This document shows positions 3,779-52,062 of a DNA stretch of 64,000 nt, one piece after another. The notes below the pieces were generated by a model. That model saw nothing but the letters and a program-made list of their open reading frames with translations, was not told the origin of the DNA and ran no database searches. The translations under genes and the position numbers were made by a program. Each line of letters begins with the position of its first letter. Within the stretch, counting starts at the first letter, position 1. The stretch is from a virus (Duplodnaviria > Caudoviricetes), in IMG/VR virus record IMGVR_UViG_3300028887_000080, positions 32,001 to 96,000 of that record. One strand, given 5' to 3'.

Positions 3779-3797
3779 GATATATCACTGATATATC
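3779..3797. repeat. Dispersed 19-bp palindrome GATATATC-N3-GATATATC (copies at 3779, 9633, 12504, 16564, 23134, 31545, 36729, 39198, 46053, 52043)
   Basis: Six copies with both half-sites exact, four with one mismatch, read directly from the sequence. Confidence 0.9.
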
Positions 3798-3973
3798 ATC
3801 ATTTTATACAAATGCCTGTTTTTCAGTCGTTACGGTAGAAATGTTATTTTTAGGTGTGTTGTAAAACAGCACATATAAATATATAACAGGAATGCGGAAA
3901 TCTTTTGGATTATAGAAGAAAAGAATCCGCCGAAAAAGATTAGCATTCACACAAAGAATATACTTTAAGTATT

Positions 3974-5794
3974 ATGTACAATATGGCTATCAATGAAAGT
4001 CAGGTTGTTGCTACTTGGGGACAGCACATTAAGGAATCCCTCGGTATCACTGACGAATCAAAACTCCAATGGATGTCGAAATATGCTTATCTTCACGATT
4101 TGCACGACAAGAAGATGATTGCGGAGTCTGTTGACGGACACGCACACCTCAACCCGAATATGAACATCGGCGGTATGGGCGCCATCAATTTCCCTGGTGC
4201 TGCCACCAACAACACCTATGACCGTTCACTCGCAGGTTCAGGTGACAATGTGTACAGCGTTCTTCCTTTGGCACTCCAAGTCGCTGCACAGACCATCGCT
4301 CTTGACTTGGTTCCTGTGGTTCCGATGCAAGGTCCTCACGGTCTGCTCCAATACCTTGACTATGTGTATGAAGGCGGTCGTCTGAACAATATGGGTGGAA
4401 GCGAATACACCTCTCCGTTGTATAACGGCAAACCTGAAAACTTCGCTTCTCCTTATATGATTAAGGCAAACATCACCGCTATGGACGGTGCTGGTACCGA
4501 CGCTGAAAAATTCATTTTCCGTCCGAACTCAACCTATCACTTCAAAGGCAACGATGATTATGAACTGACCTACATCTATCCTAACCGTATTGACGGTAAA
4601 CCGTTGTTCCGCGTGATTGAAAAATCACACTATGCAGGTCAGAAGATGGTCGGTGGAGAAAACGCTTCAACTCCGATTTACGTTCTCTTCGACAATCTTA
4701 TGTCAGACGGTTCCAACAAGACCACTCTCGTCTGCGATGAGTACATTGACAAAGACAATGTTAAGCACACTGACTTTGAAATGACCATCACAGCCGCCAA
4801 CGGTATTGAAAACGTCCGTGCATTTGAAGACCACGTCACTTCATTCAGCGGTGAAGGTTTCCTGAAGAAAACCGTCACAAGCAACAATCCTTACACCCGT
4901 GAAATGGGCGAGGCAACCCCAGGTCGTAAAATCGGTCTCAAGTCCTACACTTTGGACATCAAGGCAATGACCCTGAAAGTTGACTCCGCTATCACCCGTG
5001 AGCAGGTTCAAGACCTCAAGCAGTTCGGTATCGACGCTATTTCCCAAGCAGAAGCTGCACTCGTGAACGAACTCACACAGGGCATCAACAAAATCATCCT
5101 TGAAAAGATGTTCAACCTTGGTGCTCTCAATGCAGTTCAACTTCAAGAAGTTGAAGGTCGCAACCTTATCTCCGCTTGGTTCGTGAATGGTGAACCCGCT
5201 TCCACTACTGACAAAACCACTAACATTTGGTTGGGTGACAAATACAACAAAGAAACAGGCGAACTTGAAGGTAAATATGTTGCCGAAAACATTCCTTACA
5301 CCAACGTCACAGGCGGCGGTGAAGTGATGGGCACCATCCAACGTCGTATTATGACCAAAATCATCGCTGCTTCCAACGTGATTGCAGTCCGTGGTCGTAG
5401 AGGCGCAGGTACCTTCGCAGTCTGCTCCGGCACCATCGGTACCGCTCTCCAAGATTGCGCAGGTTTTATGCCTTATCCGCTTTCTAACACCATCTCCGCT
5501 AACGGCAACAGTCTGTATCCGATTGGCGCACTTGCTGGCATCAGCATCTACGTCGACCCGAATATGGCATTCAACGATATGCGCGTTGTGGTCGGTCGCA
5601 AGGGTAAAGAGAACGAACCAGGCATCGTGTTCTGCCCTTACCTTATGGCAGACAAAGTCGAAACTACAAGCGAGTTCACGATGGCACCTGTCATCTCCCT
5701 CCAATCTCGTTTCGCTTGTGTTGAGGCAGGTATCTACCCGCAGACGCAGTACTACACTTTCAGTATCAAACTCGACGGTGTAAGTCTTGTCTAA
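3974..5794 (+). CDS. Major capsid protein (T4 gp23-like)
   Basis: DLVPVVPMQGPHG, TREQVQDLKQ.GIDA..E..LVNEL..INK.I, RGRRGAGTF, G.LAG.SIYVDP, GIVFCPY, TMAP...SRF. Confidence 0.95.
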   Translation: MYNMAINESQVVATWGQHIKESLGITDESKLQWMSKYAYLHDLHDKKMIAESVDGHAHLNPNMNIGGMGAINFPGAATNNTYDRSLAGSGDNVYSVLPLALQVAAQTIALDLVPVVPMQGPHGLLQYLDYVYEGGRLNNMGGSEYTSPLYNGKPENFASPYMIKANITAMDGAGTDAEKFIFRPNSTYHFKGNDDYELTYIYPNRIDGKPLFRVIEKSHYAGQKMVGGENASTPIYVLFDNLMSDGSNKTTLVCDEYIDKDNVKHTDFEMTITAANGIENVRAFEDHVTSFSGEGFLKKTVTSNNPYTREMGEATPGRKIGLKSYTLDIKAMTLKVDSAITREQVQDLKQFGIDAISQAEAALVNELTQGINKIILEKMFNLGALNAVQLQEVEGRNLISAWFVNGEPASTTDKTTNIWLGDKYNKETGELEGKYVAENIPYTNVTGGGEVMGTIQRRIMTKIIAASNVIAVRGRRGAGTFAVCSGTIGTALQDCAGFMPYPLSNTISANGNSLYPIGALAGISIYVDPNMAFNDMRVVVGRKGKENEPGIVFCPYLMADKVETTSEFTMAPVISLQSRFACVEAGIYPQTQYYTFSIKLDGVSLV

Positions 5795-5816
5795 CCTTTA
5801 ATTAGGACTGATATTT

Positions 5817-5851
5817 AAGGGGTTGTGATTTCACAACCCCTTTTTTATTTT
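5817..5851 (+). terminator. Rho-independent terminator after capsid gene
   Basis: aaggggttgtg-attt-cacaacccctt + T tract. Confidence 0.8.
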
Positions 5852-5940
5852 TAGGAACTCATTGAAACCAATTCATAACAACAACGGCAAATCTCGATTG
5901 AAAAAAAATCTATAAATAAAGTGATGTGACATTTTTTTTG

Positions 5941-5950
5941 TATTTTTGCA
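5941..5950 (+). promoter_or_regulatory. Bacteroidetes-type -7 promoter element TAnnTTTG(CA)
   Basis: tatttttgca 17 bp upstream of the ATG at 5967. Confidence 0.5.
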
Positions 5951-5966
5951 AAGTGAAAATCAGACT

Positions 5967-7910
5967 ATGAACAGAGATGAATTGAAACGATTGTTGCTGC
6001 TTCCGAAATCGGAAGGCGGTATAAACCAAATCCAAGAAAGCGGGTTTGCGAAAATGTTTCCTGAAGAATATGCCGAATTGTGCGGCATTGACTTTCCGAA
6101 CGGGTTTACATTCAGGCAGAAACTTTATCATTGGTTGAACGGTGATTTTGGTCTTGCGCTCGGATTCTGCAAGAAATGCGGAAAGCGTTGTTCATTCAAG
6201 AACCTGTCAAAAGGTTATTTTGATTATTGCAGCAATTCCTGTGCGCAGAGTTCCGATGAGAACATAAAAAAAGTGAAAGCGACCAAACTTGAAAGGTACG
6301 GTGAAGAGAACTACAACAACAGGGAAAAATCAAAACGTACTTGTATGGAGGCGTATGGTGTTGACAATCCGTTGAAATCCGGCGATGTTGTGGAAAAGGG
6401 AAAACGCACCAAACTTGAAAGATACGGCGATGAGAATTACAACAACAGAAAAAAGGCGTCGGACACAAAACTTGAAAAGTATGGTGATTCGGCATATAAC
6501 AACCAACAGAAATACAAACAAACCTGCATTGAGAAATACGGAGTGGAAAACGTGTTCCAACTTCAGTCGGTGAGTGAGAAAATACACGACACTATGATGG
6601 ACAAATATGGTGTCGGGCATTCGATGCAGTCTCCTGTTTTTCAAGAAAAGGCGAAAGACACGAACCGCAAGCGATACGGGAGCGACTATGTTATGCAGAA
6701 TGATGAGGTGAAGCATAAGTCCCGTGACACCAATATTGAGAAGTACGGTCACCCTTGCAGTTTGCAGAATGACGAAGTTAAGGAAAAGGCGAGGAACACT
6801 ATGATTGAAAAGTATGGTGTCGAGCACAATTCGCAGACGAAGGAGTTTTGGGAGAAATACAAAGACACTTGTGTGGAGAAATACGGCGTGGAGCACCCTT
6901 CTATGAGCGAAGACGTCAAGGACAAGATGAAGCATACTTGTATTGAACGCTACGGCGTGGAGTATGCGTCGCAGAGCGATGAGTTCAAGAAAAGGGTGAT
7001 GGAGACGAACCGCAGGCTGTACGGGGTTGATTGGTATTGTATGACTTCGGAGTGCAGGTTGCACGGAAACGACAGCAAGGTGAACCTGAATTTCGCCAAG
7101 ACGCTTGAGGATTCAACAATACCGTTCGAGCGTGAATTTCCGTTGGAAGGGTATTCTTACGATTTCAAGGTCGGAAATGTGCTTATAGAACTCAACCCGA
7201 CCATAACCCACAATTCAGCGGTCAACATATATGGTGGGAACCCGAAAGACGAGAACTATCACTTTGCGAAATCGAACACTGCGGAATTGCACGGACTCTC
7301 CTGCATTCATATTTGGGATTGGGACGACAAGGCGAAGATAGTCCGTATGCTGAAACCCAAAACAATTCTGTATGCAAGGAAGTTGGTTCTGCGTGAAGTC
7401 GACGCCGTTTCCTGCGACCGTTTTTTGAACGAGCACCATTTGCAGAATACTTGCAAGGGGCAGTCTGTCTGCTTGGGTCTGTATATGGACGATGTGTTGG
7501 TTGAGGTTATGACATTCGGCAAACCGAGATACAACAAGAATTACGAATGGGAACTTTTGAGGCTTTGCACACATTGCGATTACAAGATTGTAGGCGGAGC
7601 GGAACGATTGTACAGTCATTTTGTGAAGTCATACATCCCGAAATCAATCATAAGTTATTGCGACAACAGCAAGTTCAACGGCGGAGTGTACAAAAGACTC
7701 GGAATGTCGTTGCTGCGCCTGTCCAAACCGAGCAAACATTGGTGGAACGGAAAACGGCATATCACGGACAACTTTTTGAGGCAGCGCGGGTTTGACCAAC
7801 TGTTCGGCGCCAACTACGGAAAGGGGACGGACAACAACGAACTTATGCTTGAACACGGTTTTTTGCCAATCTATGATTGTGGACAGATGACTTTTGTTGT
7901 TGAATTTTAA
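5967..7910 (+). CDS. Hef-like repeat nuclease paralog 2 (~12 YG repeats)
   Basis: Same architecture as 1016..2998; ATG start at 5967 chosen. Confidence 0.7.
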   Translation: MNRDELKRLLLLPKSEGGINQIQESGFAKMFPEEYAELCGIDFPNGFTFRQKLYHWLNGDFGLALGFCKKCGKRCSFKNLSKGYFDYCSNSCAQSSDENIKKVKATKLERYGEENYNNREKSKRTCMEAYGVDNPLKSGDVVEKGKRTKLERYGDENYNNRKKASDTKLEKYGDSAYNNQQKYKQTCIEKYGVENVFQLQSVSEKIHDTMMDKYGVGHSMQSPVFQEKAKDTNRKRYGSDYVMQNDEVKHKSRDTNIEKYGHPCSLQNDEVKEKARNTMIEKYGVEHNSQTKEFWEKYKDTCVEKYGVEHPSMSEDVKDKMKHTCIERYGVEYASQSDEFKKRVMETNRRLYGVDWYCMTSECRLHGNDSKVNLNFAKTLEDSTIPFEREFPLEGYSYDFKVGNVLIELNPTITHNSAVNIYGGNPKDENYHFAKSNTAELHGLSCIHIWDWDDKAKIVRMLKPKTILYARKLVLREVDAVSCDRFLNEHHLQNTCKGQSVCLGLYMDDVLVEVMTFGKPRYNKNYEWELLRLCTHCDYKIVGGAERLYSHFVKSYIPKSIISYCDNSKFNGGVYKRLGMSLLRLSKPSKHWWNGKRHITDNFLRQRGFDQLFGANYGKGTDNNELMLEHGFLPIYDCGQMTFVVEF

Positions 7911-7921: not shown

Positions 7922-9655
7922 ATGATGAATGCGGAATGTGACACTACTATGGAAGAACTCAAAAATTTTCTCAATGCCAAACCCGTGTACTTGCAGGAAA
8001 GCAAATTTGCAGTGAAGTTTCCCGATGAGTATGTCACATTGTGCAGTTGGAAGTTTCCCGACGGGTTCACATTCCAGCAGAAACTTTATCATTATGTCAA
8101 TGGCGACAATATATTCAGACTTGGATTGTGTCCCACTTGTGGAAAGCGTTGCAGGTTCAAGTCATTTGGCAGAGGTTACTTTGAGTATTGCAGCAAATCC
8201 TGTATCTATACAAAGGAGCGTTCCGAAAAGTGCAAGGAGACAAAACTTGAACGATATGGTGACTCCAACTACAATAACATAGAAAAGGCGAAGCGTACTT
8301 GTATTGACAGATATGGTGTGGAGAACGTCTCGCTTGTTGAGAGCATATCGGAGCAGAAATCGGAAACAAGACGTAACAGGACATCGGATGAGAAAGCGGC
8401 GACAAGGGAGAAAATAGCACGGACGTGGGCGGCAAAGACAGATGATGACGTAAACAGGCATATAGAGAGTATCCGACAGGGAAAACTTGAAAAGTATGGG
8501 GACGTCAATTTTTCAAATCCGCAAAAGACAAAGGATACTAAACTTGAAAGATATGGGACACCAACCTATGTGAACCCTGAAAAAATGGTCGCGACAAAGC
8601 GTGCGAAGGCATTGGATGCAGACCCGAACATAATCAGTTTCAATACTGACGGCAGCGTGGTCAGGAGATGTGATAATCCATCCTGTGACAGGTGTGATGA
8701 AAAGTGCTATACCACATTCACGAGACTTCATTATGACAGAATCAGACTTGGGTGTATCACCTGCACCAAACTAAATCCCATTGACAGGCACACGAGCGGA
8801 GGTGAGAATGAGTTGTATGAATATGTCAGGGGGGTGTACGGAGGAACCATAGTGAAGAATGACAGGGGTGTCCTCGGAGGTCAGGAACTTGACATCTATC
8901 TTCCTGACAAGAAACTCGCATTTGAGTTCAACGGGTTGTATTGGCACAGTGATTTATACAAGGACAAGAACTATCACTTTGAGAAATCAAAATCCTGTAT
9001 GGAGAAAGGTGTGAGACTTGTCCATATATGGGAGGATGATTGGCGTTACAGGAGGGATATTGTGGAGAACCTCATATCAGGAATATTGGGAAAGCACAAT
9101 ACTTACATAAACGCAAGGAAATGTTCGGTGGGAAAGGTGGATGCAAAAACAGCGCGAGTGTTTTGTGATAAATACCATATACAGGGTTATGTGAACTGTG
9201 CTGTCAGATATGGTATTTTCTATAATGGAGAACTTGTGATGGTCTCGTTATTTGGAAAGCGCAGGCGGATTTGCGGAGGTGTCCCGAAAGAGAATGTTTG
9301 GGAACTTTACAGGATGTGTTCGGTGTTCGGAACGAGAGTTCGCGGAGGTGCGAGCAGATTGCTTGTGCATTTCATCAATGATGTCAGACCGAACTCCATA
9401 GTAACTTTTGCCGACTCCTGTATTTCTGACGGTGGAGTCTATGAGAAAATGGGTTTTGTGAAGGACGGTGTTGTGCCGCCATCCTACTATTGGGTTGTTG
9501 GCATTGAACGTGTGCCGAGATATAGGTTCCAAAAGTCAATGCTTGAGGAGTGCAAGGACAACTCTGACCTTACGGAGGATGAGGTGATGCGGTCAAGAGG
9601 ATGCCTCAAAATATGGGATGCGGGAAAAGTGAGATACATCATTGATATATCGTAA
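7922..9655 (+). CDS. Hef-like nuclease paralog 3 (fewer repeats, second Zn site, ELDIYLP..AFEFNGLYWHS nuclease variant)
   Basis: CPTCGKRC; YG repeats; ELDIYLPDKKLAFEFNGLYWHS..HIWEDDW; YHIQG..WELYRMC..GGASRL..TFAD..G.VYEKMGF..IWDAG. Confidence 0.7.
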   Translation: MMNAECDTTMEELKNFLNAKPVYLQESKFAVKFPDEYVTLCSWKFPDGFTFQQKLYHYVNGDNIFRLGLCPTCGKRCRFKSFGRGYFEYCSKSCIYTKERSEKCKETKLERYGDSNYNNIEKAKRTCIDRYGVENVSLVESISEQKSETRRNRTSDEKAATREKIARTWAAKTDDDVNRHIESIRQGKLEKYGDVNFSNPQKTKDTKLERYGTPTYVNPEKMVATKRAKALDADPNIISFNTDGSVVRRCDNPSCDRCDEKCYTTFTRLHYDRIRLGCITCTKLNPIDRHTSGGENELYEYVRGVYGGTIVKNDRGVLGGQELDIYLPDKKLAFEFNGLYWHSDLYKDKNYHFEKSKSCMEKGVRLVHIWEDDWRYRRDIVENLISGILGKHNTYINARKCSVGKVDAKTARVFCDKYHIQGYVNCAVRYGIFYNGELVMVSLFGKRRRICGGVPKENVWELYRMCSVFGTRVRGGASRLLVHFINDVRPNSIVTFADSCISDGGVYEKMGFVKDGVVPPSYYWVVGIERVPRYRFQKSMLEECKDNSDLTEDEVMRSRGCLKIWDAGKVRYIIDIS

Positions 9656-10521: not shown

Positions 10522-12492
10522 ATGGTTGACGGAAACAGAACTACGGCGAATGGAGACCAACTGCTTGTCAGCGTGAAGGAACCATATCTCAACCTGATGG
10601 AGATTTCGGGTTACGAGTATGTGGCTAAAGGCGAGACTGAAACATTGTACTATACAAAGGAGTTCAGGTGGTCTACGGACGGAATCCTCTACAACGATTG
10701 GAAACCCCTGACCAATGAAAACCTGAAGAATATACTCCTAACACCTGACAAACCTTTCTATCCCCAATACCGCCTCACGCAGAACGGCGACGGAGAACTG
10801 ACGTTCGAGAGCATCGCGCTCGAAACCGTCACGGAGGAAGGTCTTGTCACCTCAATACCGTTGTGCGGCATTGACGACAACAGCAACTGCTGTGGACGGC
10901 AGAACCTCGTGTTCGAGTGCTGCGGCGGCGGGTTCAATCCCTATTCGGTCGGAAACTCCTCCTATGTCTATACCCAACTCTCGCAGGTGGTTTCCAATAT
11001 GTTCGGTTTCTGCGTGCAATACTTCAAGACAAGCGCAGACCAACGCTCGAAGGACGTCATCCTGCACGAATACTCATTGCTCAACGTGATTGCGGAGGGG
11101 AATGTGAAGATTGTCGTGCCCGACAACCAACTGCCGACGAGGGAGATAAACTTCAACCCCCTTATGATGGACTATCCAGTGGTGTTCGAGGTGCATATCG
11201 TCAAGCAGGGGTTCAGGAGCGCTTTCGGTCAGGACGCCAAACCCGAAGTGGGGGACTATCTCTATTTCGAGCAGTATGTGAACAAGATGTACGAAGTGAA
11301 CGCTGTGTCCGAAACCGACGACTATCTTTACACAGGAGCGTATTGGAGGGTCAGTCTCGCGCAGTATCAGAAACGGAGCGCGGTCAAGTTCGAGACTCCA
11401 GAAATTGAACTTGCCACCGACACCCTCATATTCAACACCGACAAGTTCAACATCGAGGTCGAGAAACAGGAGGAGGATGTACGCAAACCTGAACAGTACA
11501 ACACGATAGGCAAGGTCGAGAACGACTATGTGCGCAGGATACTCGACAAGCGCCTGAAAATCGAAACGGAGAGTATATACAACAACTGGACGGTCATCTC
11601 CAAGCACCATTACGCGCTGAAGTCCATACCTCGCGGGCAGACCGCCATACAGTACAGGTATGACAGTGGGTGGGGTGAAAGTGACGACAGGATGTTCACT
11701 ATGTGGTTCAGACCGAAATACGCGAACCCGAATTTCATAGACTCTTCCAACAAGACCTATGCGGACTCGCAGTTTCCAAAGACCGATGTGATGGAAATAC
11801 TGAACGACGGCGGTTATGCCGTGTTCAGGGTTGAAAGTGTGAAAAACATATCGGAGGGTATGCTTGTCCGAGTGAACGGAACCAACTATCCGAAGGTTAT
11901 GAAAGTTGTGTCGGTGGACTATGAAAACAATCTGTTCAAGGTTAACAACAGGTATATTGACAACTGCATTGTGGTTAACGCCTGTGTCCTGCCTTCGCAA
12001 ACCAATGAGTTCCTTGTTTCGGAAGGAGGGTTTGCATTGTCATACGCATTCAAGTCCGTGTGTGTGTCGTTGGGCGGGAAAGACATTCTGTTCGACCTCA
12101 AGAAAAACGGGGCGGACGGTTTCGGAGGTCTTTTGGCGGACAGGTGGTGGGCGTTCGTCGTTATGGTGAAACCGTCGGAAAAGAAATGCGCATTGTGGAT
12201 ATACTCGTTGAGTTCGGGGAATCCGAACCTCCGCACGATGGATTCCGCAATCAGTCAAGTCTATTATTCTATGCAGGAAGTCCACGGAGACCTCACCGTC
12301 GGCGACGGGCATTTCGGTTTGCGTTCCTGTGCTATGGACATAACGAACATAAGGATATGGAACGAACTGTGCGAGGAAGACAAGCACAATCTCATTCTGT
12401 CGCAGTATGTCGTGAAGGATAGTCACAAGTGCGAACTCGTGGACAATGCACAACCTGAACTTATGCTCGACAAGGTAACCAATCCGAGATAG
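10522..12492 (+). CDS. Neck/head-completion protein (T4 gp14-like core) with N- and C-terminal extensions
   Basis: FEVHI.K..F...FG....PEVGDYLYF....KMYEVNAV resembles gp14; late promoter upstream; beta-rich C-terminus. Confidence 0.6.
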   Translation: MVDGNRTTANGDQLLVSVKEPYLNLMEISGYEYVAKGETETLYYTKEFRWSTDGILYNDWKPLTNENLKNILLTPDKPFYPQYRLTQNGDGELTFESIALETVTEEGLVTSIPLCGIDDNSNCCGRQNLVFECCGGGFNPYSVGNSSYVYTQLSQVVSNMFGFCVQYFKTSADQRSKDVILHEYSLLNVIAEGNVKIVVPDNQLPTREINFNPLMMDYPVVFEVHIVKQGFRSAFGQDAKPEVGDYLYFEQYVNKMYEVNAVSETDDYLYTGAYWRVSLAQYQKRSAVKFETPEIELATDTLIFNTDKFNIEVEKQEEDVRKPEQYNTIGKVENDYVRRILDKRLKIETESIYNNWTVISKHHYALKSIPRGQTAIQYRYDSGWGESDDRMFTMWFRPKYANPNFIDSSNKTYADSQFPKTDVMEILNDGGYAVFRVESVKNISEGMLVRVNGTNYPKVMKVVSVDYENNLFKVNNRYIDNCIVVNACVLPSQTNEFLVSEGGFALSYAFKSVCVSLGGKDILFDLKKNGADGFGGLLADRWWAFVVMVKPSEKKCALWIYSLSSGNPNLRTMDSAISQVYYSMQEVHGDLTVGDGHFGLRSCAMDITNIRIWNELCEEDKHNLILSQYVVKDSHKCELVDNAQPELMLDKVTNPR

Positions 12493-12560
12493 CGGAAAGC
12501 GCTGATATATCAATGATATATCCGCATATAAATATATGCGGAGCAATCATAGACATAATT

Positions 12561-16524: not shown

Positions 16525-16587
16525 AAAAATACTCCTGCTTTAAGGCAAGTCAGGTGAACCTTTGATATATCATTGATATATCGCTTG

Positions 16588-20042: not shown

Positions 20043-20198
20043 TGGGCAGGGAAGGATTTGAACCTCCGAACCCGAATGGGAGCGGATTGGCAATGTGGGA
20101 AATTACGAATTTCCGAAACTTCATTATTCACATTGCGGTTTAACGTGTAACCTTCACGTAGTACAGTCCGCCGCGTTTAACCACTTCGCTACCTGCCC
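20043..20198 (-). tRNA. tRNA-Tyr(GTA) interrupted by a 73-nt intron-like insertion (20089-20161)
   Basis: gcgga-CT GTA [73 nt] AA-tccgc; otherwise canonical Tyr body with variable arm. Confidence 0.85.
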
Positions 20199-20210
20199 TT
20201 ATAGAATTTG

Positions 20211-20281
20211 TGGACATTACGGGAATCGAACCCGCTTTCACGCCTCCCGTTGCAGTGGGACACGCTACTGCCGTTATGCCC
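20211..20281 (-). tRNA. Atypical tRNA-Cys(GCA)-like with shortened D arm
   Basis: tccc-a CT GCA A c-ggga; intact T arm; imperfect acceptor. Confidence 0.6.
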
Positions 20282-20292
20282 TTGTTGTTATG

Positions 20293-20364
20293 TGTCACGG
20301 ATGAGACTCGAACTCACAATCCCCTGATTAAAAGTCAGGTGCATCGCCATTATGCTACCGTGGC
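20293..20364 (-). tRNA. tRNA-Lys(TTT)
   Basis: cctga-CT TTT AA-tcagg. Confidence 0.92.
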
Positions 20365-22782: not shown

Positions 22783-23158
22783 TAAAAAAAATCAACTTTT
22801 TTACAGATATTGAAAAAAATCTCAAAAAAAAATCGGAGGTTGCTTTCACATACCTCCGATTCTATTTGGTTTCAGTGGGGTATGGTCATTCTTCCTTTGA
22901 GTATTCATTATCTTGTTTCTGTCCGAAACTTGCACCATTGCCGTCAAAAATGCCGCAATACGCCTGTTTCGGGGATATGTGCTTCCCTGTTTTTGGCGTG
23001 CGGTTGTCGGTTGCGATGTTTGTTTTGGAAAGAATCATTGAGTTCTTTTTATTATTTTTTCGGAATATATTTATACAAGTGTTTTTGCACTGTTTCCAAT
23101 GGGTGTGAAAATGGTGCAAAACCTCTGAAAATGAATATATCGCAGATATATCTGACAT

Positions 23159-31463: not shown

Positions 31464-31561
31464 ATCTTTGTGTTTATTTTTTTATTCAAAAACAAAAATG
31501 CGGCACATTGTGCCGCATATATTTATATGATTTGAAAATTCAGAGATATATCAGTGATATA

Positions 31562-32485
31562 TCAATCCTTTTTGGACTGCCTTCGCTCTGACAACCAATC
31601 CATATAGTCGTCAAGTGCTGTGGGACAGTATTTTTCGATGAGGTCTTTGCTCCACCATTGGAAGTGACCGCTCTGCGGCATAGGTTCGTTGAATGAAACC
31701 TCTATGCCCATTTCGTTGTAGAGTTCATCGAACCCCTCAAGACCGAAGTCGTATCCGAGTCTCGCCGCCACCATAAACTTTTGGATGAGGTCGAACAGTT
31801 TCGGTTTTGAGTTCTCGGAAGGAACGCCTCCGCAGTAGTAACGCCAATCGAGCATAAGTTTGTAGTCCTTCTGTGTATACTTCATCTGCGTGATATACTC
31901 GAACGCAAGTCCAAGTCTGTTGAGCATTTCCTTGTGCACTTTCGTCGCCTTGATGCTCCGCTCGACCGACGTGTTCAGGATTTTGTCGAACTCTTCGTCG
32001 TCGGTGCCCTCAAGTTCTATGTTCATATTCCTTGTCCATTCAGGTATCGGCATAGTGTCGTCGTATGAATTGATGACGCTGTCAAGGAACTTTTCCCTCA
32101 TACATTGGTCAAACATTTTCTGCTTGACGTTTTCTTCATACTTTTCCCTGTTCTTGTCTGTGAACTCGCCCATCCTAATTTTAGTCATAATGGTGACAAT
32201 TTCCTTGTACTGCTGTTTCGACACATTGATACCGAGCATATCGCTGACGGTCGTGTAATCCTCCTCCATAATGGCATTGGTCTCGTCAAGCATCGCCTGC
32301 ATCTCCTCAATGCCGACTTTGAGAAGGACTTGGACTTTCATACGCCAATCCATTTCGTCAGGAATACCGACCTTGTTGGACACGTCAAGGTATGCTTCCA
32401 TCGCCTTGGTAAGCCGTTTGTTTGTTTTTTTGTTTTCCTTTTTGTCTTTTTTATCTTTCATAGTATGGTTGTTTTGTTTATTCAA
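31562..32485 (-). CDS. Hypothetical protein
   Basis: 307-aa ORF on the coding strand. Confidence 0.7.
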   Translation of the reverse strand: MNKQNNHTMKDKKDKKENKKTNKRLTKAMEAYLDVSNKVGIPDEMDWRMKVQVLLKVGIEEMQAMLDETNAIMEEDYTTVSDMLGINVSKQQYKEIVTIMTKIRMGEFTDKNREKYEENVKQKMFDQCMREKFLDSVINSYDDTMPIPEWTRNMNIELEGTDDEEFDKILNTSVERSIKATKVHKEMLNRLGLAFEYITQMKYTQKDYKLMLDWRYYCGGVPSENSKPKLFDLIQKFMVAARLGYDFGLEGFDELYNEMGIEVSFNEPMPQSGHFQWWSKDLIEKYCPTALDDYMDWLSERRQSKKD

Positions 32486-32488
32486 AAA

Positions 32489-32920: not shown

Positions 32921-32933
32921 TTCGGTTGTTTTA

Positions 32934-35952: not shown

Positions 35953-38097
35953 TCACTTCATTTCTTCAATTCTTATTTTTAATGTGTTCCTGAAATACCA
36001 TTCCCCGCGAACGCTCTCCTTCCGTTTTTCTTCAGGGACTCCGTTCAGGATTTCCTCCATAACCGATTTCGGCATAGCGATGTTGCAGGACAGCCACTCG
36101 GATGACTTCAGGAGCATACGCTCCCAATCCTCGTCCTTGAATGTTTCCTTTACGAAGTCCATTGCCTTTTCGATAATCTCGTTGATTTTCTTGTTCACGG
36201 AATCATTGTCATCCGTTCGCATAAGCATTCCGCCATTCGTCCCGAACGGGTCTGTGAGGTATGTCGTGACGCAGGGGGTTCCCGTTGCGCCGAGCACGCT
36301 CATACCGCATTCCCTCACCATTCTCGAAGCGAGTGACGTGGCGCGCATTATGTCCTGCGAGGCGCCTGTCGTTATGTGTTTATTTCCGAACACCTCGCAT
36401 TCCGCGGCATAGCCAGCGAGACAGACCGCGATTTCCTTCACGCAGTCCAAAACGGTCATAAACTCCGTTTCCTCCGTGTTGTCTTCCTGCATAAATCCGT
36501 TCGCTTTCTGCGACACGGTTCCTGACACGAGTTTGGCGGGAAGTTTGCCGAAGAGTTTGGCATACATAACGAAATGCCCGCTTTCGTGAACCGCCGTCAA
36601 TGCTTGGTTTTCGTCCGCCTTGTTTTTCCGTTTCCCTTCAAGTCGCAACTGCTGCGGGAATTTCATCTCGTCTTTCATTACAGATTTGTATTCCCAAGAC
36701 GCAATCACATTTCCGTCCTCATAGGTGAAATATATCGTTGATATATCACCCTTTCCGCTCGACATAGCGTGCATTATGATTGACGGGAGTTTGGTCTGTA
36801 TGATTTCATAGGCGGATGAGAACACGGGTCTCGTCCCGTGAGTCGGGAAAACGCCGTCCCTGTATATGATGTCGTATATGCTGTCGTCGTATTTTATCTC
36901 TATGCCGTATTTCTCTTTCACGGTTTGGGCATAGTTTCCGAGATAGAGTTTGATGATGTCCTCGAAGTTCTTTTTCGAGAACGACGGGTAGAGAACCATA
37001 ATGTTTCCGAGTCTTGCAATCTGCTCGTTCCTGAACCTCACGCCGAGCGCCTCCTTGATGTCCACGAGTGTCATTCTCTCCGTCTTTATCCTGAATTGGT
37101 CGGGTTCCATATCGGGGTCGACGTTGTACGCCATCTCGTATGCCTCGTCTATGTTCCCCATAACGAAGACGAGCGACTTGCTGAAGTTCACGTCATACCC
37201 GCCGCGCATAGACTTCTGTATTCTTTGGACATACTTGTATAGGTCGTCCGCGTTCATATCCCGCATAGAATCCATATATTCCTCGTATGTCATATCGTGC
37301 TCTCCTGATATGCACGTCACCTCGTAGATTGGACCGAGCAGGTCGCTCGACACCCAAAACGTTATGTCGTTGTTGCAGGCGCAGTCGAAATGGTCGCACC
37401 AATACTTCCTGTTTCCGCACTTGTAGTCCTCGAACTCTCCGAGGTTGCCCGACACATTGAAGTTCGCCGCGAAGTCGCCTTTTTTATCTATGGGGAGTAT
37501 ATTGAATATGTGCTCGCCGTTTTTGAGGACGCCTTTCTCTACAACGCCTCCGAGTTCGCATACCATCTTCAGGATGGACGCCGCGTTGGTCATCTTGTTC
37601 TTGAAGTAGTTGCTGAACGTCCTGTGGAACTTTCCCGTGTCAATCACTTCCCATATCGTTTTCAGGGAGGTTTTGTTGTCCTTTTCCTTCCCTTCCGAAT
37701 CTATGGTGGCGGCGAATTGAAACTCGTCGAACACGAACACCCTGTTGGATTTCGTGTTGCCCATATTTTCAAGTATCTTGTCTTCTATGTCCTCCGAATC
37801 CTCCTCCCCGATTTTGGCGAGGTTGTAGACGCACATATCCTCTTTTATGTCGAGAAGTTCGCAAAGTCTGTTCACAAGACTTGTCTTTCCGCAACCAGTC
37901 AGTCCCCACAGGCATATAGTTATCGGTTTCGTCTGTAGGTCAGGAAACACATACCATCCCCTCACGTTGTCTATTATGGTGTCTATAACACCGTCTATTC
38001 CGACAAACTCTTTCTTGAGTTGCAGTTTTGCATCCTCAACTGCCTTGAATTTGTTTCTGATTTCTTCGTTCTGCATAGTTCGCCTGTTTTGGTACAA
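35953..38097 (-). CDS. Soluble AAA+ ATPase fused to an FtsH-type (M41) zinc protease
   Basis: WGLTGCGKT, FVFDEFQ, QIARLG; TAVHESGH, LAGYAAE..FG, TTGASQDI..AT; no transmembrane segments. Confidence 0.85.
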   Translation of the reverse strand: MYQNRRTMQNEEIRNKFKAVEDAKLQLKKEFVGIDGVIDTIIDNVRGWYVFPDLQTKPITICLWGLTGCGKTSLVNRLCELLDIKEDMCVYNLAKIGEEDSEDIEDKILENMGNTKSNRVFVFDEFQFAATIDSEGKEKDNKTSLKTIWEVIDTGKFHRTFSNYFKNKMTNAASILKMVCELGGVVEKGVLKNGEHIFNILPIDKKGDFAANFNVSGNLGEFEDYKCGNRKYWCDHFDCACNNDITFWVSSDLLGPIYEVTCISGEHDMTYEEYMDSMRDMNADDLYKYVQRIQKSMRGGYDVNFSKSLVFVMGNIDEAYEMAYNVDPDMEPDQFRIKTERMTLVDIKEALGVRFRNEQIARLGNIMVLYPSFSKKNFEDIIKLYLGNYAQTVKEKYGIEIKYDDSIYDIIYRDGVFPTHGTRPVFSSAYEIIQTKLPSIIMHAMSSGKGDISTIYFTYEDGNVIASWEYKSVMKDEMKFPQQLRLEGKRKNKADENQALTAVHESGHFVMYAKLFGKLPAKLVSGTVSQKANGFMQEDNTEETEFMTVLDCVKEIAVCLAGYAAECEVFGNKHITTGASQDIMRATSLASRMVRECGMSVLGATGTPCVTTYLTDPFGTNGGMLMRTDDNDSVNKKINEIIEKAMDFVKETFKDEDWERMLLKSSEWLSCNIAMPKSVMEEILNGVPEEKRKESVRGEWYFRNTLKIRIEEMK

Positions 38098-38752: not shown

Positions 38753-39199
38753 ATGAAAATAATAGAGAGTTTCGCGGTTTTTGAAAAACTGCTGCACAAG
38801 GAGAAAAGCATACGCAAGGCGCTCGACAGCAATTTCTGCGTGTTCCAATACATAAAGAAGGACGGTGAGAAACGCAAGGCGTTCGGCACATTGAAGTCCG
38901 ACTTCATATCTAAATGGTGGAAACCATCGGGTGAGGAGTCACCGTCGATAGACGCGCTGCGACTTCAGGGTTATATACAGTATTGGGACATCGAGCGCAA
39001 GAACTTCAGGCAGTTCACTATGGACGAGGGTGTGCACCTTCTTGAGGAATATGCGACCGCAGAGGAAATGGCGGAAAAATACCCTGAATTGAGAAAGAAA
39101 CTCGGACTTCCCAAGTATGACGAGAAGAAAAAGGAGAAAAACGGTGACGAGAAAACCGACAAAGGGAATGACGAAAGTGGAGATGATGGAAAAAAGTGA
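38753..39199 (+). CDS. SH3/WYL_2-like (DUF2693-type) protein
   Basis: FQYIKKDGEKRKAFGTL...YWDIE..NFRQF. Confidence 0.7.
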   Translation: MKIIESFAVFEKLLHKEKSIRKALDSNFCVFQYIKKDGEKRKAFGTLKSDFISKWWKPSGEESPSIDALRLQGYIQYWDIERKNFRQFTMDEGVHLLEEYATAEEMAEKYPELRKKLGLPKYDEKKKEKNGDEKTDKGNDESGDDGKK

Positions 39200-39225
39200 T
39201 ATATCATTGATATATCGCAAAAAAC

Positions 39226-39258: not shown

Positions 39259-39864
39259 TCAGTCGATGTTTCCGATGTACTTCTTGAGTTTTTTCTGCGC
39301 GGAGATGAACTTCGCCCTTGCCCTGTGCATAGGTATTCCGAGCGTGTCTCCGATTGAGGCGAAGTCGGTCTTGCCGTTGTTCGTCGGGATAATACCTATT
39401 CTCATCTTCACGACCTTCGACTGCATTTCGTTCAGTTTTTCAAGAGCGTTCTTGATGTCAATCATAAGATTCACGTCGTTCTGTTTGTATTCAAGCGGCA
39501 TAAGGTGTCCGTCAGGCATAATCAGGTCTTCGTATTTGTGCTTGATTTTCTCATACTCCTTGAACCCTCCGTTTGTTCGGTTGTATGGGAGATGCACCAC
39601 GTTTTTTTGGTTGTTGAGTTCGCGTTTCGCGTACTCCGTCATAAAAGGTTTCGCGTATGACCAAAATCGGTCGTTCAGGTCGGGGTCGTACTGCTCAATC
39701 AACCGCACGACGACGATTGAGCATATCTGTCTTATGTCGTCCTTTATGTCGCTCTGCATTTTGCCGAACTCATAGATGATGACATTCACAATGTTGTTGA
39801 AATCTTTTGATTTCAGGAGGTCGTCAACTGTCAGTTTTTCATTTGTGCCTTTTTCATTGTCCAT
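39259..39864 (-). CDS. Sigma70-family-like phage sigma factor
   Basis: Region 2-like DD.RQ......LIEQYDP....FWSYA; region 4-like ALEKL...Q..VV.MR.G.....DFASIG..LGI...R. Confidence 0.7.
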   Translation of the reverse strand: MDNEKGTNEKLTVDDLLKSKDFNNIVNVIIYEFGKMQSDIKDDIRQICSIVVVRLIEQYDPDLNDRFWSYAKPFMTEYAKRELNNQKNVVHLPYNRTNGGFKEYEKIKHKYEDLIMPDGHLMPLEYKQNDVNLMIDIKNALEKLNEMQSKVVKMRIGIIPTNNGKTDFASIGDTLGIPMHRARAKFISAQKKLKKYIGNID

Positions 39865-45991: not shown

Positions 45992-46096
45992 TTTAATTTT
46001 TTTGGTTTTCTTTATTTGAATATAATGGAATTTTTGAAGTTTTTGAACTCGTGATATATCAATGATATATCGTATGAAAAAAATATCTTCTGAAAT

Positions 46097-48049: not shown

Positions 48050-48415
48050 ATGGGCAGAAAAAGAAGTGTAAATTACATAGACCCGAAAGAATTTTATGAC
48101 GAACTTGTCATTTCGCTTGAAAAGGACGAACTCACTCCGAGGGCGATTGAACTCTGCCAACTGCTTATCGACAGGGTTGCCAAGTGCAACCACTACAGTT
48201 GCATTGAGGACGAAGAGGACTGCAAGGCGCACGCTATGTTCAACATACTGCGGTATTGGAGGAATTTCGACCCGGAGAAATACGACAATCCCTTCTCATA
48301 TTTCACATCGTTCGCTTGGTCGGGTCTCGGACAGGGGTGGAATGTGATACATCCTGAAAAGGAAAGGGGTGTCCAAAAGATTTTCATATCAAGCATAGAG
48401 GACGCCAAAAAATGA
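48050..48415 (+). CDS. Late-transcription sigma factor (T4 gp55-like)
   Basis: NYID.KEFY, RNFDPEKYDNPFSYFT motif; consistent with TATAAATA promoters. Confidence 0.8.
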   Translation: MGRKRSVNYIDPKEFYDELVISLEKDELTPRAIELCQLLIDRVAKCNHYSCIEDEEDCKAHAMFNILRYWRNFDPEKYDNPFSYFTSFAWSGLGQGWNVIHPEKERGVQKIFISSIEDAKK

Positions 48416-50169: not shown

Positions 50170-50224
50170 ATCTTATATAATATTTTCCTTGTGTTGTGAC
50201 ACCTTTTATTTATAAAGGACTCTT

Positions 50225-50785
50225 TCAGTCCTTGTTTTCCTTTTTAGTCTTTTCGGAAAGCGACTTCACATAGGCGTCGAAGTCAAGGACGTGACCGTTT
50301 CCTGCGTTTATCTTGCCGATGTTTTTGTCAACAGGAATGAGTTTTTCGTTTCCCTTTCCTTTCGGAGCGTCGAATTTCGGGGGCTTGTATCCACCCTTGC
50401 GCTCATCCTTCTTGAACTCCTTCTTGGTCTTGTCCGCCCTGTCGTTTGCAATGCTGTTCATATCGCCCGCATTGCCTTTTCCGCTTGTTATAACCTCCGT
50501 GTCGTCCTCGTTGGATTCCTTTATCTCGTCCTTGATGTTGACGGGTTTCCAAGCGGACGGGGTTATGATTGCAAAACCGTTCTTCGGCATAAGGTCTGGG
50601 TGCTGCATCGGGTTCGGGCATTCCGCGCATATCTCGTTGTATCTTGCGATGTGCGTGCGTGCGATTTCCTCGATGACACCCATTCCGAGAAGTATGCTCA
50701 AGACCTGCTCGTCGCTCAATCCGCATTTCTTCTGCGAATAAATCAGTCTCAATAAGTTGCTGTTCATAATAGGATAATTATTCAA
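50225..50785 (-). CDS. Hypothetical late protein
   Basis: ORF behind TATAAATA; charged C-terminus. Confidence 0.6.
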   Translation of the reverse strand: MNNYPIMNSNLLRLIYSQKKCGLSDEQVLSILLGMGVIEEIARTHIARYNEICAECPNPMQHPDLMPKNGFAIITPSAWKPVNIKDEIKESNEDDTEVITSGKGNAGDMNSIANDRADKTKKEFKKDERKGGYKPPKFDAPKGKGNEKLIPVDKNIGKINAGNGHVLDFDAYVKSLSEKTKKENKD

Positions 50786-50805
50786 CTATATTTATAAGGC
50801 AGGAT

Positions 50806-51195
50806 TTACCATCCATTGCCGTTTTTAATACGGATGCCCTCACGCCGCATATCCTGTGGGGTGATGTTTCCGAGTTTTCCAATCCAAAGTTCGTGTACGC
50901 TGTTGTATTCCTCCGTCCAACCCTTTTTCTCGTATGTGACGAGGATGCAACCATTGTCAAGCACCTCACAGGTCAGGTCGGCAACGTCAATGTCGGATTT
51001 TACTGCCGATTTGACAACATCATACACACTGTTGCCGGTGATGAGTTTGAGGTCTTTGTGCTGATAGTCTCCGTGTCTGACACTGTGTTCCTCGTGTTTC
51101 AGAAGCACATAGGGTTCGTATCTGTATCCTGTGGCGGTGGATGGCATTCTTGATTTACTGACACTCATTTCATCCACACTTTTGATATGTTCCAT
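50806..51195 (-). CDS. Hypothetical late protein with capsid-targeting-like N-terminus
   Basis: MEHIKSVDEMS; TATAAATA at 51221. Confidence 0.65.
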   Translation of the reverse strand: MEHIKSVDEMSVSKSRMPSTATGYRYEPYVLLKHEEHSVRHGDYQHKDLKLITGNSVYDVVKSAVKSDIDVADLTCEVLDNGCILVTYEKKGWTEEYNSVHELWIGKLGNITPQDMRREGIRIKNGNGW

Positions 51196-51313
51196 AATCG
51201 GTTGATATATTTTTTTACATTATTTATATTCGGTCTGTGAACTACCGCTTGGGTAAAGACATAGCGGTTTTTTTGAACAATTCGTATAAATATAGACAAA
51301 CAAAAACGGAATT

Positions 51314-52036
51314 ATGAGGATTAAAACACTTGACGAGTTCACAAACCGCGTAAACGAGGCGAAGGGTGACAACCTGCATCAATTCGTGGAGTATATGAAT
51401 GAATACGGAAAACAAGGTGAATTGGGACATTGTTCAACGACAGCGGAAAACGAGTTTTCAAAAAACAATTTTGTTTTCAGTGACGTGTCAGACACATTTG
51501 ACAATTATTCACTATGCGGTCTTGTGTTCGACTATCTTTGTGATATGGGTGAAGCGTGCGATTTGGACGAACTTAAACATTCGGACGACCCTGTTGTGGA
51601 GTACATAGAGGACGAAAACGACTTCAACGGTTATCTGATGGACGTCGCATACGATAGGATTCTGTCCAACTTGGAAACTGACAGCAGGGGGAACATCTAT
51701 ATAGAGCGTGAAATATCGGTTCCAAAATTCATAAACAAGGACAAGTTCTACAACTTGCTGAAAACCGACTACAGCGGAAAACTCGGTGTGTTCTGGACTT
51801 ATGCCAAAGGCAATGCGGAGGCGCAGTGGTCAAACCATCTTGACGGCGAATACATAACGCTGTACGGATATGTTTCACCGACCGATGTCGATTGGGACGA
51901 AACCATCAGGGCGAACCTCGATATGCCAGACGAACAGGAACTGACGTTGAAGAAAGGCGCGACAATAGAACTCGACAGGGTAAAAACAAAAAAAGGGCAC
52001 ACCATATTCCGTGGCAGTATGCTGTACAAGGCGTAA
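51314..52036 (+). CDS. Late protein with capsid-targeting-like N-terminus and ART-like C-terminal domain
   Basis: MRIKTLDEF..RVNEA; YIER..LGVFWT..EQEL motif order resembles R-S/T-ExE ADP-ribosyltransferases. Confidence 0.55.
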   Translation: MRIKTLDEFTNRVNEAKGDNLHQFVEYMNEYGKQGELGHCSTTAENEFSKNNFVFSDVSDTFDNYSLCGLVFDYLCDMGEACDLDELKHSDDPVVEYIEDENDFNGYLMDVAYDRILSNLETDSRGNIYIEREISVPKFINKDKFYNLLKTDYSGKLGVFWTYAKGNAEAQWSNHLDGEYITLYGYVSPTDVDWDETIRANLDMPDEQELTLKKGATIELDRVKTKKGHTIFRGSMLYKA

Positions 52037-52062
52037 CACCGCAATATATCAACGATATATCT

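Follow-up and report, generated by a model that had tools for sequence, protein, structure and literature searches.

The DNA analysed here is a 64-kb window within a 124-kb contig (G000). The contig comes from a T4-like jumbo phage, of whose genome it makes up about 39%; this phage is large and uncultured, has a Gp23-type capsid, is known from metagenomes and looks lytic. Dispersed along the window are ten copies of a 19-mer, GATATATC-N3-GATATATC, hereafter PAL, in which each 8-bp half is itself self-complementary and an offset of 11 bp puts both halves on the same side of the helix. Six copies are exact (those starting at 3779, 12504, 16564, 31545, 39198 and 46053) and four carry one mismatch, the left half reading AATATATC at 23134, 36729 and 52043 and GATACATC at 9633. 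All ten had been listed in a sequence-only reading of the window, which did not mention the four single mismatches.

Most of the copies sit at the boundaries of genes. The copy at 3779..3797 (spacer ACT) follows a bidirectional terminator by 13 nt and precedes the late-promoter box TATAAATA of the gene for the Gp23 capsid protein by 77 nt. That at 12504..12522 follows the stop codon of ORF 10522-12492 by 11 nt and stands just 4 nt ahead of the TATAAATA box of an amidase gene. At 23134..23152, PAL is flanked by the bidirectional terminator of a gene for a 776-aa protein and by the late promoter that heads a tRNA array, and at 31545..31563 (spacer AGT) it overlaps the stop codon of the minus-strand ORF 31562-32461 and stands 17 nt upstream of a minus-strand TATAAATA box. 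The copy at 46053..46071 separates a pair of minus-strand genes, 25 nt past one stop and 61 nt ahead of the next start, with a ATTATATTCAA motif between, while that at 52043..52061 fills the gap between two ORFs, 6 nt past the stop of ORF 51314-52036 and 1 nt ahead of the ATG of an 88-aa ORF (52063-52329).

The contexts that the sequence-only reading had singled out are also as described. The copy at 39198..39216 lies between convergent genes, overlapping the stop codon of a plus-strand WYL_2 ORF (38753-39199) and ending up 11 nt away from the bidirectional terminator at the end of a minus-strand sigma-like gene (39259-39864). The copy at 16564..16582 lies within the minus-strand tRNA array, with tRNA-Ala 4 nt before it and tRNA-Ser 39 nt after it, and no promoter or terminator motif was found in the spacer between these two tRNA genes. 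Two copies fall inside coding sequence, one at 9633..9651, in the final 22 nt of a DUF7487/HNH ORF (7922-9655) and followed 18 nt further on by a TTTTTTGTTATATT promoter-like motif, and the other at 36729..36747, within an FtsH-like AAA+/M41 gene, where it is read as the codons D-I-S-T-I-Y.

Copy number, spacing and placement

The frequency of PAL is not explained by base composition, as dinucleotide shuffles of the window predict 0.00 exact copies and 0.18 copies at three or fewer mismatches, and 0.54 occurrences of the octamer GATATATC as against 16 observed, every one of them in a pair. Over the whole 124-kb contig there are 20-21 copies at two or fewer mismatches, with 0 expected; 31 of the 32 GATATATC octamers have a partner at exactly N3, leaving a single lone half-site, and no decayed or intermediate copies were found. 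A site always has exactly two units and its nearest neighbour is never closer than 2.5 kb, and PAL was accordingly rejected as a replication-origin iteron, which calls for a cluster of at least three repeats beside an initiator gene. When diverged phages are included, all of about 40 copies retain the N3 length with a variable spacer sequence and invariant arms, such changes as occur falling mainly at the outermost and innermost positions, and A9 and T11 prolong the dyad. The flanks of the copies share no common sequence and show no target duplications. Mismatches in the contig are distributed as 11 in left halves and 1 in right halves, a weak strand polarity that tracks the plus strand rather than gene direction, and that becomes weaker (11 versus 4, P=0.12) when phages L141 and L089 are included.

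The spacing of PAL, described previously as quasi-regular, is indeed even: across the contig the mean interval is 5.95 kb, with a coefficient of variation (CV) of 0.42 and a minimum of 2.47 kb, and this evenness is significant (P<1e-4) against each of three nulls in which sites are placed uniformly, in non-coding DNA only, or one per gap. Neither composition nor the location of non-coding DNA thus accounts for it, and the TATAAATA late promoters of the same phage (n=38) have a CV of 1.13. Non-coding DNA makes up 13.6% of the contig, yet it holds 18 of 20 PAL copies (P=4e-14), only two or three copies on the contig being intragenic. Core and accessory regions alike carry PAL, at one copy per ~6 kb.

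The sequence-only reading considered PAL not to be tied to promoters. Half of the sites have a promoter-like motif within 30 nt, compared with 23% of random non-coding positions (P=0.007), but the other 10 of 20 copies lie more than 30 nt from any such motif, and the neighbouring motifs belong to all classes, with PAL upstream, overlapping or downstream, so that there is no fixed geometry. Five copies have a terminator within 50 nt. Two divergent late promoters enclose one copy, which is upstream of both TATAAATA boxes and so is probably untranscribed. PAL is not itself a T4-type late promoter, defined as TATAAATA ~20-50 nt ahead of starts; that role is served by 38 separate TATAAATA boxes, which PAL only sometimes adjoins or overlaps.

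Conservation and phylogenetic range

Strain L141, with 93% capsid-protein identity and 90% nucleotide identity over 9.4 kb, keeps PAL at all three comparable sites, with 46 of 48 half-site bases matching but only 5 of 9 spacer bases. At the copy at 3779, 16 of 16 half-site bases are the same while the surrounding spacer is 58% identical (P about 1.5e-4); the copy at 12504 is retained with spacer AAC in place of AAT; and the syntenic counterpart of the copy at 9633 carries a different single mismatch from that in G000. This pattern of substitution shows purifying selection on the half-sites, and not on the spacer or flanks.

More distant relatives possess the same 19-mer at 5-9 kb intervals and at similar density, with positions that are mostly different; what is kept, in 3 of about 7 comparable cases, is the neighbourhood of PAL rather than its exact position. 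In relative L058, there is no PAL at the equivalent of 16564, and a copy is instead found 179 nt across tRNA-Ala, on its other side. The homologue of the 88-aa gene in L135 has PAL at its opposite (3') end, and in L035 PAL also follows the sigma-like homologue, where it is built into the terminator. No PAL was found in relatives with 67-80% capsid-protein identity, and it is absent from G001, L143, L144 and L145, even though G001 has the same late and other promoter motifs as the phage studied here. The FtsH-like homologue of G001 reads DISKIH, coded by GACATATCAAAAATACATA, at the position equivalent to 36729; the two phages differ there by three changes, all toward PAL, and the Asp codon used in G000, GAT, is the minority choice (23%).

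Beyond phages, PAL is essentially absent from bacterial genomes: across 185,579 species, a 21-mer version lengthened by its flanks gave 6 single matches. Unrelated high-GC bacteria carry the same palindrome as a pair in the stretch from which a GntR/FCD regulator and the operon next to it diverge, an arrangement most simply read as an operator, which implies that PAL can work as a binding sequence for a protein. Unrelated contigs also contain clustered 11-bp arrays of the GATATATC unit.

Alternative readings of the repeat

Several functions could be imagined for such a repeat at the level of the transcript or of its initiation. PAL might be an RNA element, a transcribed hairpin with an 8-bp stem and a 3-nt loop read by an RNA-binding protein or nuclease that processes, stabilises or terminates polycistronic and tRNA transcripts, in the manner of T7 RNase III sites or REP elements. 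Consistent with this are the copies close behind stop codons or tRNA 3' ends inside transcription units, the five copies near a terminator, and the finding that, of 18 copies in relatives, 7 cap long bidirectional-terminator hairpins (-19 to -31 kcal/mol) that have A/T runs and whose GC flanks covary. Nevertheless, there are zero compensatory stem substitutions across the ~40 copies, a hairpin requires neither self-complementary arms nor the dyad-extending A9/T11, and the hairpins of the studied contig are weak, at -1.7 to -10.7 kcal/mol, with the A1 variants beside start codons nearly destroying the stem (just -1.7 kcal/mol at 52043). One copy, moreover, lies between divergent promoters and outside late transcripts, and 3'-end elements would not be expected to be evenly spaced, all of which makes an RNA role unlikely. 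PAL has no match in Rfam and so is not a known RNA family, and as a stand-alone intrinsic terminator it was rejected for this contig, where 0 of 21 stems extend beyond 2 bp. That PAL is instead a promoter for a phage sigma factor or RNA polymerase, whether as back-to-back extended -10-like TGATATATC elements or as an N4-type hairpin promoter, seems to us extremely unlikely. TGATATATC does match the phage's TGTTATATT promoter-like core at 7 of 9 positions, a second sigma70-family gene adjoins a PAL in two lineages, and T7-type promoters are likewise uniform; but only one copy lies between divergent genes, others lie between convergent genes, between tRNAs or ahead of terminators, copies 1-3 nt ahead of start codons would place the transcription start inside the gene, and those nearest start codons lack TG on the coding strand. 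The late and other promoter motifs are, in addition, already accounted for and common to the PAL-less G001. The T4 mode of late transcription, which is activated from nicks, brings in a further candidate, namely that PAL is a site of specific nicking or cleavage, providing T5-type fixed nicks, sliding-clamp entry for gp55-type late promoters, or starting points for recombination-dependent replication. The very high specificity without degenerate copies, the even spacing, the weak strand polarity and the many HNH-type ORFs of the genome would all fit, as would the use of T4-type late transcription, indicated by the TATAAATA boxes and by a 121-aa ORF (window positions 48050-48415) that we take to resemble T4 gp55, for which a Pfam scan gave no family. 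The polarity declines, however, once L141 and L089 are added, and no enzyme is linked to PAL, so that we regard nicking as very unlikely.

Two other possibilities concern the DNA itself. A selfish or recombination-driven repeat, spread and homogenised by a nuclease, a transposase or gene conversion and having no function of its own, would find comparators in REP/RAYT elements, in the PeSL cassettes of T4-type phages and in DNA uptake sequences, the last of which also end up in terminators, as some PAL copies do. The extreme uniformity of the copies, none of them decayed, their patchy presence and positional turnover among relatives, an indel between G000 and L141 that lies 40-70 nt from one PAL, and the abundance of HNH-like and TnpB elements in the genome could all be read in this way. 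Against it, the spacing is over-dispersed rather than clumped, the flanks lack shared sequence or target duplications, PAL is stable between G000 and L141 while the flanks diverge, and, in a hand count, breaks of synteny with G001 are not significantly enriched for PAL (6 of 31 break gaps versus 11 of 114 others); a selfish origin is accordingly quite unlikely. A REP/RAYT or IS200/IS605-type repeat in particular was rejected, the contig having no Y1 transposase (PF01797) and the flanks not being conserved. The sequence-only reading had itself predicted binding sites for a dimeric or tetrameric protein with a parS/matS-like role in segregation, packaging or injection. The first part of this prediction is supported, in that PAL copies behave like sequence-specific duplex-DNA sites for a symmetric protein, but the second is unsupported, and a narrow-sense centromere or macrodomain site is improbable. 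PAL is palindromic, evenly distributed and independent of promoter class, and its neighbourhood is kept in those 3 of about 7 comparable cases in distant relatives, yet no ParB_N domain was found in the contig, close relatives do without PAL, and parS sites cluster near an origin and do not tile genomes, as unclustered PAL does. T4-type phages package by a headful mechanism that is not known to depend on sequence signals, and partition is superfluous in a lytic phage. Given the excess of copies close to promoter-like motifs (P=0.007), genome-wide control of transcription, as by KorB/OB or stoperators, is at least as likely.

Predicted docking sites and analogous systems

The reading that we prefer, at about an even chance of being correct, is that PAL copies are high-specificity duplex-DNA docking sites for a symmetric phage-encoded protein acting genome-wide. 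Two-fold recognition of duplex DNA accounts for both the self-palindromic arms and the A9/T11 dyad. In the simplest model one dimer would occupy each half-site, giving a dimer of dimers per PAL, and selection would maintain one PAL per ~6 kb, nearly always in short gaps at gene or operon boundaries; with sites so placed, the protein's target would be the entire chromosome and not a single class of promoter. Its role may be that of a boundary, a roadblock, a long-range transcriptional regulator (compare KorB/OB and stoperators) or a chromosome organiser; the protein's binding, its oligomeric state and the effect of binding are all inferred. Searches of the contig for a candidate binder gave no match to ParB_N (PF02195, six frames), HTH_3, RHH_1, HTH_17 or MazE/AbrB, and the small ORFs adjoining PAL matched no DNA-binding family, but with only ~39% of the genome in the contig the missing binder is weak evidence against docking. 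Two further points count against it: the terminator-hairpin apices of relatives indicate structure-level selection at some copies, and the 11-to-1 polarity in G000 is unexpected for a purely symmetric site.

Docking sites of this kind may be analogous to several known systems, of which the repeats of Cluster O mycobacteriophages and KorB/OB are the nearest. Cluster O phages such as Corndog carry a 17-bp dyad, TGTTCGG-NNN-CCGAACA, in more than 30 copies genome-wide, for which a dimeric DNA-binding protein was predicted and whose function is still without assignment (PMC4351075). Like PAL, these repeats have invariant inverted arms around a variable 3-bp centre and many intergenic and some intragenic copies, and most are neither promoter-linked nor tied to rearrangements (PMC4351075). 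They differ in belonging to a siphovirus of Mycobacterium, in having 7-bp arms that are not self-complementary, in density (~1 per 2 kb with a bias toward one end of the genome, versus ~1 per 6 kb and even) and in the intragenic share (a third of Corndog copies versus about 10%). With both motif and phage unrelated, the PAL array is, on sequence grounds, an analogue and not a relative of the Cluster O repeats. On the IncP plasmid RK2, palindromic OB sites are found across the replicon, next to promoters or from tens of bp to >1 kb away, and all are read by one protein, KorB, that acts over long range (PMC11790492). A single palindromic site scattered over the whole replicon at variable promoter distance is common to both systems, whereas KorB is a CTP clamp of the ParB family with KorA as its partner, and PAL, on a contig without ParB_N, has an unrelated sequence with two self-complementary halves.

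The stoperators of Cluster A mycobacteriophages (L5 gp71), 20-30 near-identical sites in short intergenic gaps and mostly outside promoters (PMC6550527), resemble PAL in being genome-wide with a lineage-private consensus, but they are asymmetric 13-14 bp sites, oriented with transcription and bound by the monomeric immunity repressor of a temperate phage. An L5-type stoperator was rejected for PAL, which is a dyad whose weak polarity goes by the plus strand. The contig gave no HTH_3, HTH_17 or RHH match. The PeSL promoter/stem-loop cassettes of T4-type phages, repeated intergenic combinations of terminator-like stem-loops and promoters (PMC2839356, PMC4122927), likewise mark gene boundaries of T4-like genomes; they are composites of varying sequence, found above all in hyperplastic regions, and border almost all small ORFs, whereas PAL is an exact, evenly spaced 19-mer. 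PAL was also rejected as a PeSL cassette (early promoter plus stem-loop), as it has no constant partner promoter and no shared flanks. The parS and matS sites, read by the dimeric chromosome-organising proteins ParB and MatP, are, like PAL, short palindromes. Sites of the first type cluster near the origin and those of the second are confined to the Ter domain.

Dispersed, near-invariant dyad repeats are thus already known from Cluster O mycobacteriophages, and PAL extends this architecture to a T4-like jumbo phage unrelated to them. PAL adds constraints on mechanism: statistically even spacing, purifying selection on the half-sites and not on the spacer or flanks, and an array that some sublineages have and that close relatives with the same promoter motifs lack. 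It is possible, though doubtful, that PAL is one case of a widespread, undescribed type of system in which a lineage-private palindrome, evenly spaced along a large-phage chromosome, is read by a dedicated predicted protein through a mechanism other than that of ParB or KorB; such a protein might keep transcription units insulated from one another, condense or label the phage's own DNA, or give clamps or nucleases a fixed place to enter. If a cognate protein exists, PAL would represent a genome-wide DNA-protein system of large phages without an assigned role, and the comparison of PAL-positive with PAL-negative relatives would offer a direct route to finding it.

Abundance, placement and spacing of the palindrome

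The ten sites at which the sequence-only reading had seen the 19-bp palindrome GATATATC-N3-GATATATC are all present in the window, six of them exact (3779, 12504, 16564, 31545, 39198 and 46053) and four with a single mismatch (9633, 23134, 36729 and 52043). Comparison of the motif count with a shuffled background puts the palindrome far above what composition predicts, as dinucleotide shuffling of the window yields an expectation of 0.00 for exact matches and of 0.18 when as many as three mismatches are allowed, ruling out a composition artefact. The GATATATC octamer occurs 16 times in the window against 0.54 expected, always within a palindrome, and a single one of the 32 octamers on the whole contig is unpaired. 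In total the source record, of which the window is bases 32001-96000 and which is 124,221 bp long with a CheckV completeness of 39%, carries 11 exact copies, eight with one mismatch and two with two mismatches, and no copy of a reversed control pattern. Because matches at three or four mismatches either stand at background level or merely overlap true sites, the family lacks decayed members. The two-mismatch copy at contig position 18232 is probably a chance match, since it sits within the conserved peptide GDKSDNISSIY. The flanks of the copies are unrelated, ruling out a fragment of a longer repeat or MITE.

Palindromes lie mainly in non-coding DNA (18 of 20 on the whole contig, P=4e-14), which by crude gene calls makes up 13.6% of the contig. 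They are found near the ends of genes: often a copy overlaps a stop codon or is no more than about 40 nt away from it, and some occupy the entire gap up to the next start codon. Predicted terminators lie at most 50 nt from five copies. Among the settings of the palindromes are co-directional gene pairs, a single divergent pair in which the copy falls between two late promoters, a pair of convergent genes (window 39198), a tRNA-tRNA spacer (16564) and the interior of an FtsH-like gene (36729). The contig encodes 26 tRNAs. One Rfam tRNA match on the minus strand spans 156 nt (window 20043-20198) and may represent an insert- or intron-bearing tRNA, and an ARAGORN 'tmRNA' call that overlaps tRNA-Lys (window 20210-20592, minus strand) is probably spurious.

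The quasi-regular spacing of the copies, also proposed from the sequence alone, is real. Intervals on the whole contig average 5.95 kb, with a coefficient of variation of 0.42 and a minimum of 2.47 kb, and random placement matches this evenness in less than 1 of 10,000 trials, regardless of whether sites may fall anywhere on the contig, in non-coding DNA only or once per intergenic gap. Late promoters, another intergenic motif, have a coefficient of variation of 1.13. In related contigs the palindromes are 5-9 kb apart.

Promoter motifs and gene context

T4-type late promoters are represented by 38 TATAAATA boxes on the whole contig, mostly 20-50 nt upstream of start codons (for example window 3874, 12527, 31520, 38176 and 47989/48018), and these boxes take the role that a late-promoter reading would assign to the palindrome; that reading is thereby rejected. 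Several boxes directly precede, or sit in, a short hairpin, possibly a stem-loop at the 5' end of late mRNAs. Another promoter-like motif, TTTTTTGTTATATTA (variant ATTATATTCAA), stands 25-35 nt upstream of starts (window 9670, 38103, 47979, 52754 and 58293), resembles an extended -10 element (TGnTATATT) and is shared with G001, a relative without palindromes. Together, the two motifs account for ordinary promoter classes without the palindrome, and it is very improbable that the palindrome is itself a promoter. Half of the copies (10 of 20) do have a promoter-like motif no farther than 30 nt away, compared with 23% of random non-coding positions (P=0.007); the motifs are of all classes, the palindrome may be upstream, overlapping or downstream of them, and for six copies the nearest such motif is over 190 nt distant.

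The phage may possess two sigma factors. One is a 121-aa product (window 48050-48415, plus strand) that we take to resemble T4 gp55 (NFDPEKYDNPFSYFT motif); a Pfam scan assigned it to no family. The other, 201 aa long, belongs to the sigma70 family (window 39259-39864, minus strand), has RpoS region 2 (E=2.8e-5) and region 4, and might read the TTGTTATATT-type motif. The gene for this sigma-like protein adjoins a palindrome in two lineages; as reader of the palindrome the protein was rejected, a dyad spaced at 11 bp being unreadable as a -35/-10 pair. Apart from it, no credible DNA-binding candidate was found by Pfam or PHROGs among about 70 ORFs of a contig that represents about 39% of the genome, and six-frame scans of the contig for ParB_N, HTH_3, RHH_1, HTH_17, MazE/AbrB and Y1_Tnp gave no convincing binder.

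Other genes place the phage in context. Its major capsid protein is of the Gp23 type, and the capsid gene is bracketed by three DUF7487/HNH 'homing endonuclease'-like ORFs of 577-660 aa (window 1016-2998, 5967-7910 and 7922-9655), an arrangement repeated in the close strain L141 and in the relative L144. A sheath protein is encoded as well: the ORF at 29435-32947 of the source contig (G000) aligns at 94.7% nucleotide identity to a 1170-aa ORF of the syntenic L141 that bears a Phage_sheath_1C domain. The contig also encodes a Rad50/gp46-like ATPase. To the left of the window (piece L136), two neighbouring ORFs (L136:8451-9788 and L136:9791-11329) divide a family-B DNA polymerase between them in swapped order: the upstream ORF corresponds to later polymerase-domain positions, and the downstream ORF contains the exonuclease domain together with the beginning of the polymerase domain. 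The same piece encodes an 81-aa homologue of translation initiation factor IF-1 (L136:350-595, E=2e-21), with a palindrome and a promoter-like motif upstream. TnpB (Cas12f-like/OrfB_IS605) genes recur in the phage clade (window 58338-59585; L141:1-1408; L145:9362-10570; L101:5898-7145), reaching 88% identity across contigs that are diverged elsewhere, and a 320-bp element of the source contig (86067-86386) is 99% identical to one in contig L035.

Conservation among related phages

L141, whose capsid protein is 93% identical, aligns over 9.4 kb at 90% nucleotide identity and retains all three palindromes of that stretch, with 46 of 48 half-site bases the same and five of nine spacer bases. Upstream of the capsid gene, both halves are identical (16 of 16) in a spacer of 58% identity (P about 1.5e-4), whereas ACT has become TCG in the 3-bp centre. 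The identical 19-mer is also found in more distant contigs (JAEEGL01..., Ga0247609 and other Ga0265299 contigs) that share 34-88% protein identity in common genes. There, exact positions are mostly not the same and the neighbourhood is sometimes retained: the palindrome adjoins tRNA-Ala on the opposite side, stands at the opposite end of a homologous 88-aa gene, or follows the sigma-like gene. Contig L089, which overlaps the end of the source contig and extends it, comes from a metagenome that also yielded a 144-kb contig (L119). The latter carries the palindrome and promoter motifs in common with this phage and possibly belongs to the same genome; in it, a palindrome lies 15 nt past the stop of a 3251-aa collagen-repeat ORF (L119:14-9769).

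G001 (121 kb, capsid protein 80% identical) has no palindrome at up to two mismatches, and three further relatives (79%, 77% and 67% identity) lack it in the 15-22 kb retrieved around their capsid genes. Homologues of the capsid protein are found on contigs as large as 150-410 kb. Compared with the G001 homologue, the FtsH-like gene shows three changes at its internal palindrome, every one toward the palindrome. A search for a replacement motif in G001 found none, the one enriched 11-mer there only encoding FLK[DE], and by hand count the palindromes are not significantly enriched at synteny breaks between the two genomes.

Beyond these contigs, the palindrome occurs in IMG/VR only as isolated single hits, deposited phages yielded no megablast match, and the octamer retrieved nothing relevant from the full text of papers. 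A host operator is rejected, because the flank-extended 21-mer form turns up as no more than six single hits among the genomes of 185,579 species. In unrelated high-GC bacteria, a GntR/FCD regulator gene is separated from its neighbouring DHDPS-family operon by a stretch holding the palindrome and, 56 bp from it, a near copy (L049:7296-7370; also in L122, L042, L052 and further contigs of high GC content); these pairs are likely operators of that regulator and are unrelated to the phage palindrome. Unrelated metagenome contigs contain tandem 11-bp arrays of GATATATCANT with an iteron-like look (L124:506-931, L064:19-170, L066:3232-3417 and L128:3513-3542), and many metagenome hits from sample Ga0126342 are unrelated, satellite-like DNA.

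Recognition and possible roles

As RNA, the palindrome would form an AU-rich 8-bp stem with a 3-nt loop, with an energy between -6.8 and -10.7 kcal/mol in exact copies and of -1.7 in an A1 variant that adjoins a start codon. An RNA hairpin element is an unlikely explanation. What speaks against a purely DNA-level reading is that in seven of 18 copies in relatives the palindrome is the apex of a long hairpin with covarying GC flanks (ggt/acc, ccct/aggg, gaggc/gcctc and gcacc/ggtgc); A and T runs on either side make these hairpins bidirectional terminators, at energies between -19 and -31 kcal/mol. None of the 21 copies of the source contig has such an extension. For recognition as duplex DNA, some 40 copies show no compensatory stem changes, each arm is self-complementary (a property computed at 1 in 256 and needless for a hairpin), A9 and T11 lengthen the dyad to 9+1+9, and one copy sits between divergent late promoters. 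The terminator copies of the relatives may be read as a palindromic DNA tag that has been co-opted at places where a stem-loop is of use, as happens with DNA uptake sequences.

Core mismatches on the plus strand of the source contig number 11 in the left half and one in the right (P=0.006), and a leave-one-out test favours the plus orientation at 17 of 20 sites, including six of eight in minus-strand gene blocks. Right-half mismatches do occur in L141 and L089, and the pooled counts (11 versus 4) do not differ significantly. Some A1 variants are explained by overlap with TATAAATA, TTATATTA or a TAA stop, and others by weakening of the hairpin ahead of a start codon.

A selfish or recombination-driven repeat is slightly less probable than the hairpin. 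The parS/matS-like role suggested by the sequence-only reading survives as one variant of a docking-site array, though nothing specific favours it, and in its narrow form it is improbable; nick sites are a shade more so. Among published systems, the palindrome comes nearest to a 17-bp repeat of Cluster O mycobacteriophages, built as 7-N3-7, with 34 copies in Corndog, invariant arms, a variable centre and largely no link to promoters (PMC4351075). KorB and its OB sites on RK2 offer a worked mechanism for palindromes scattered near and far from promoters (PMC11790492), although no ParB domain was found in the source contig. Like L5-type stoperators, the palindrome is dispersed and lineage-private, but stoperators are asymmetric and oriented (PMC6550527), and the PeSL cassettes of T4-type phages differ in being composite and variable (PMC4122927). 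The most likely reading, in a judgement that is evenly poised, is that the palindromes form an array of docking sites for a putative symmetric phage DNA-binding protein that would act genome-wide.
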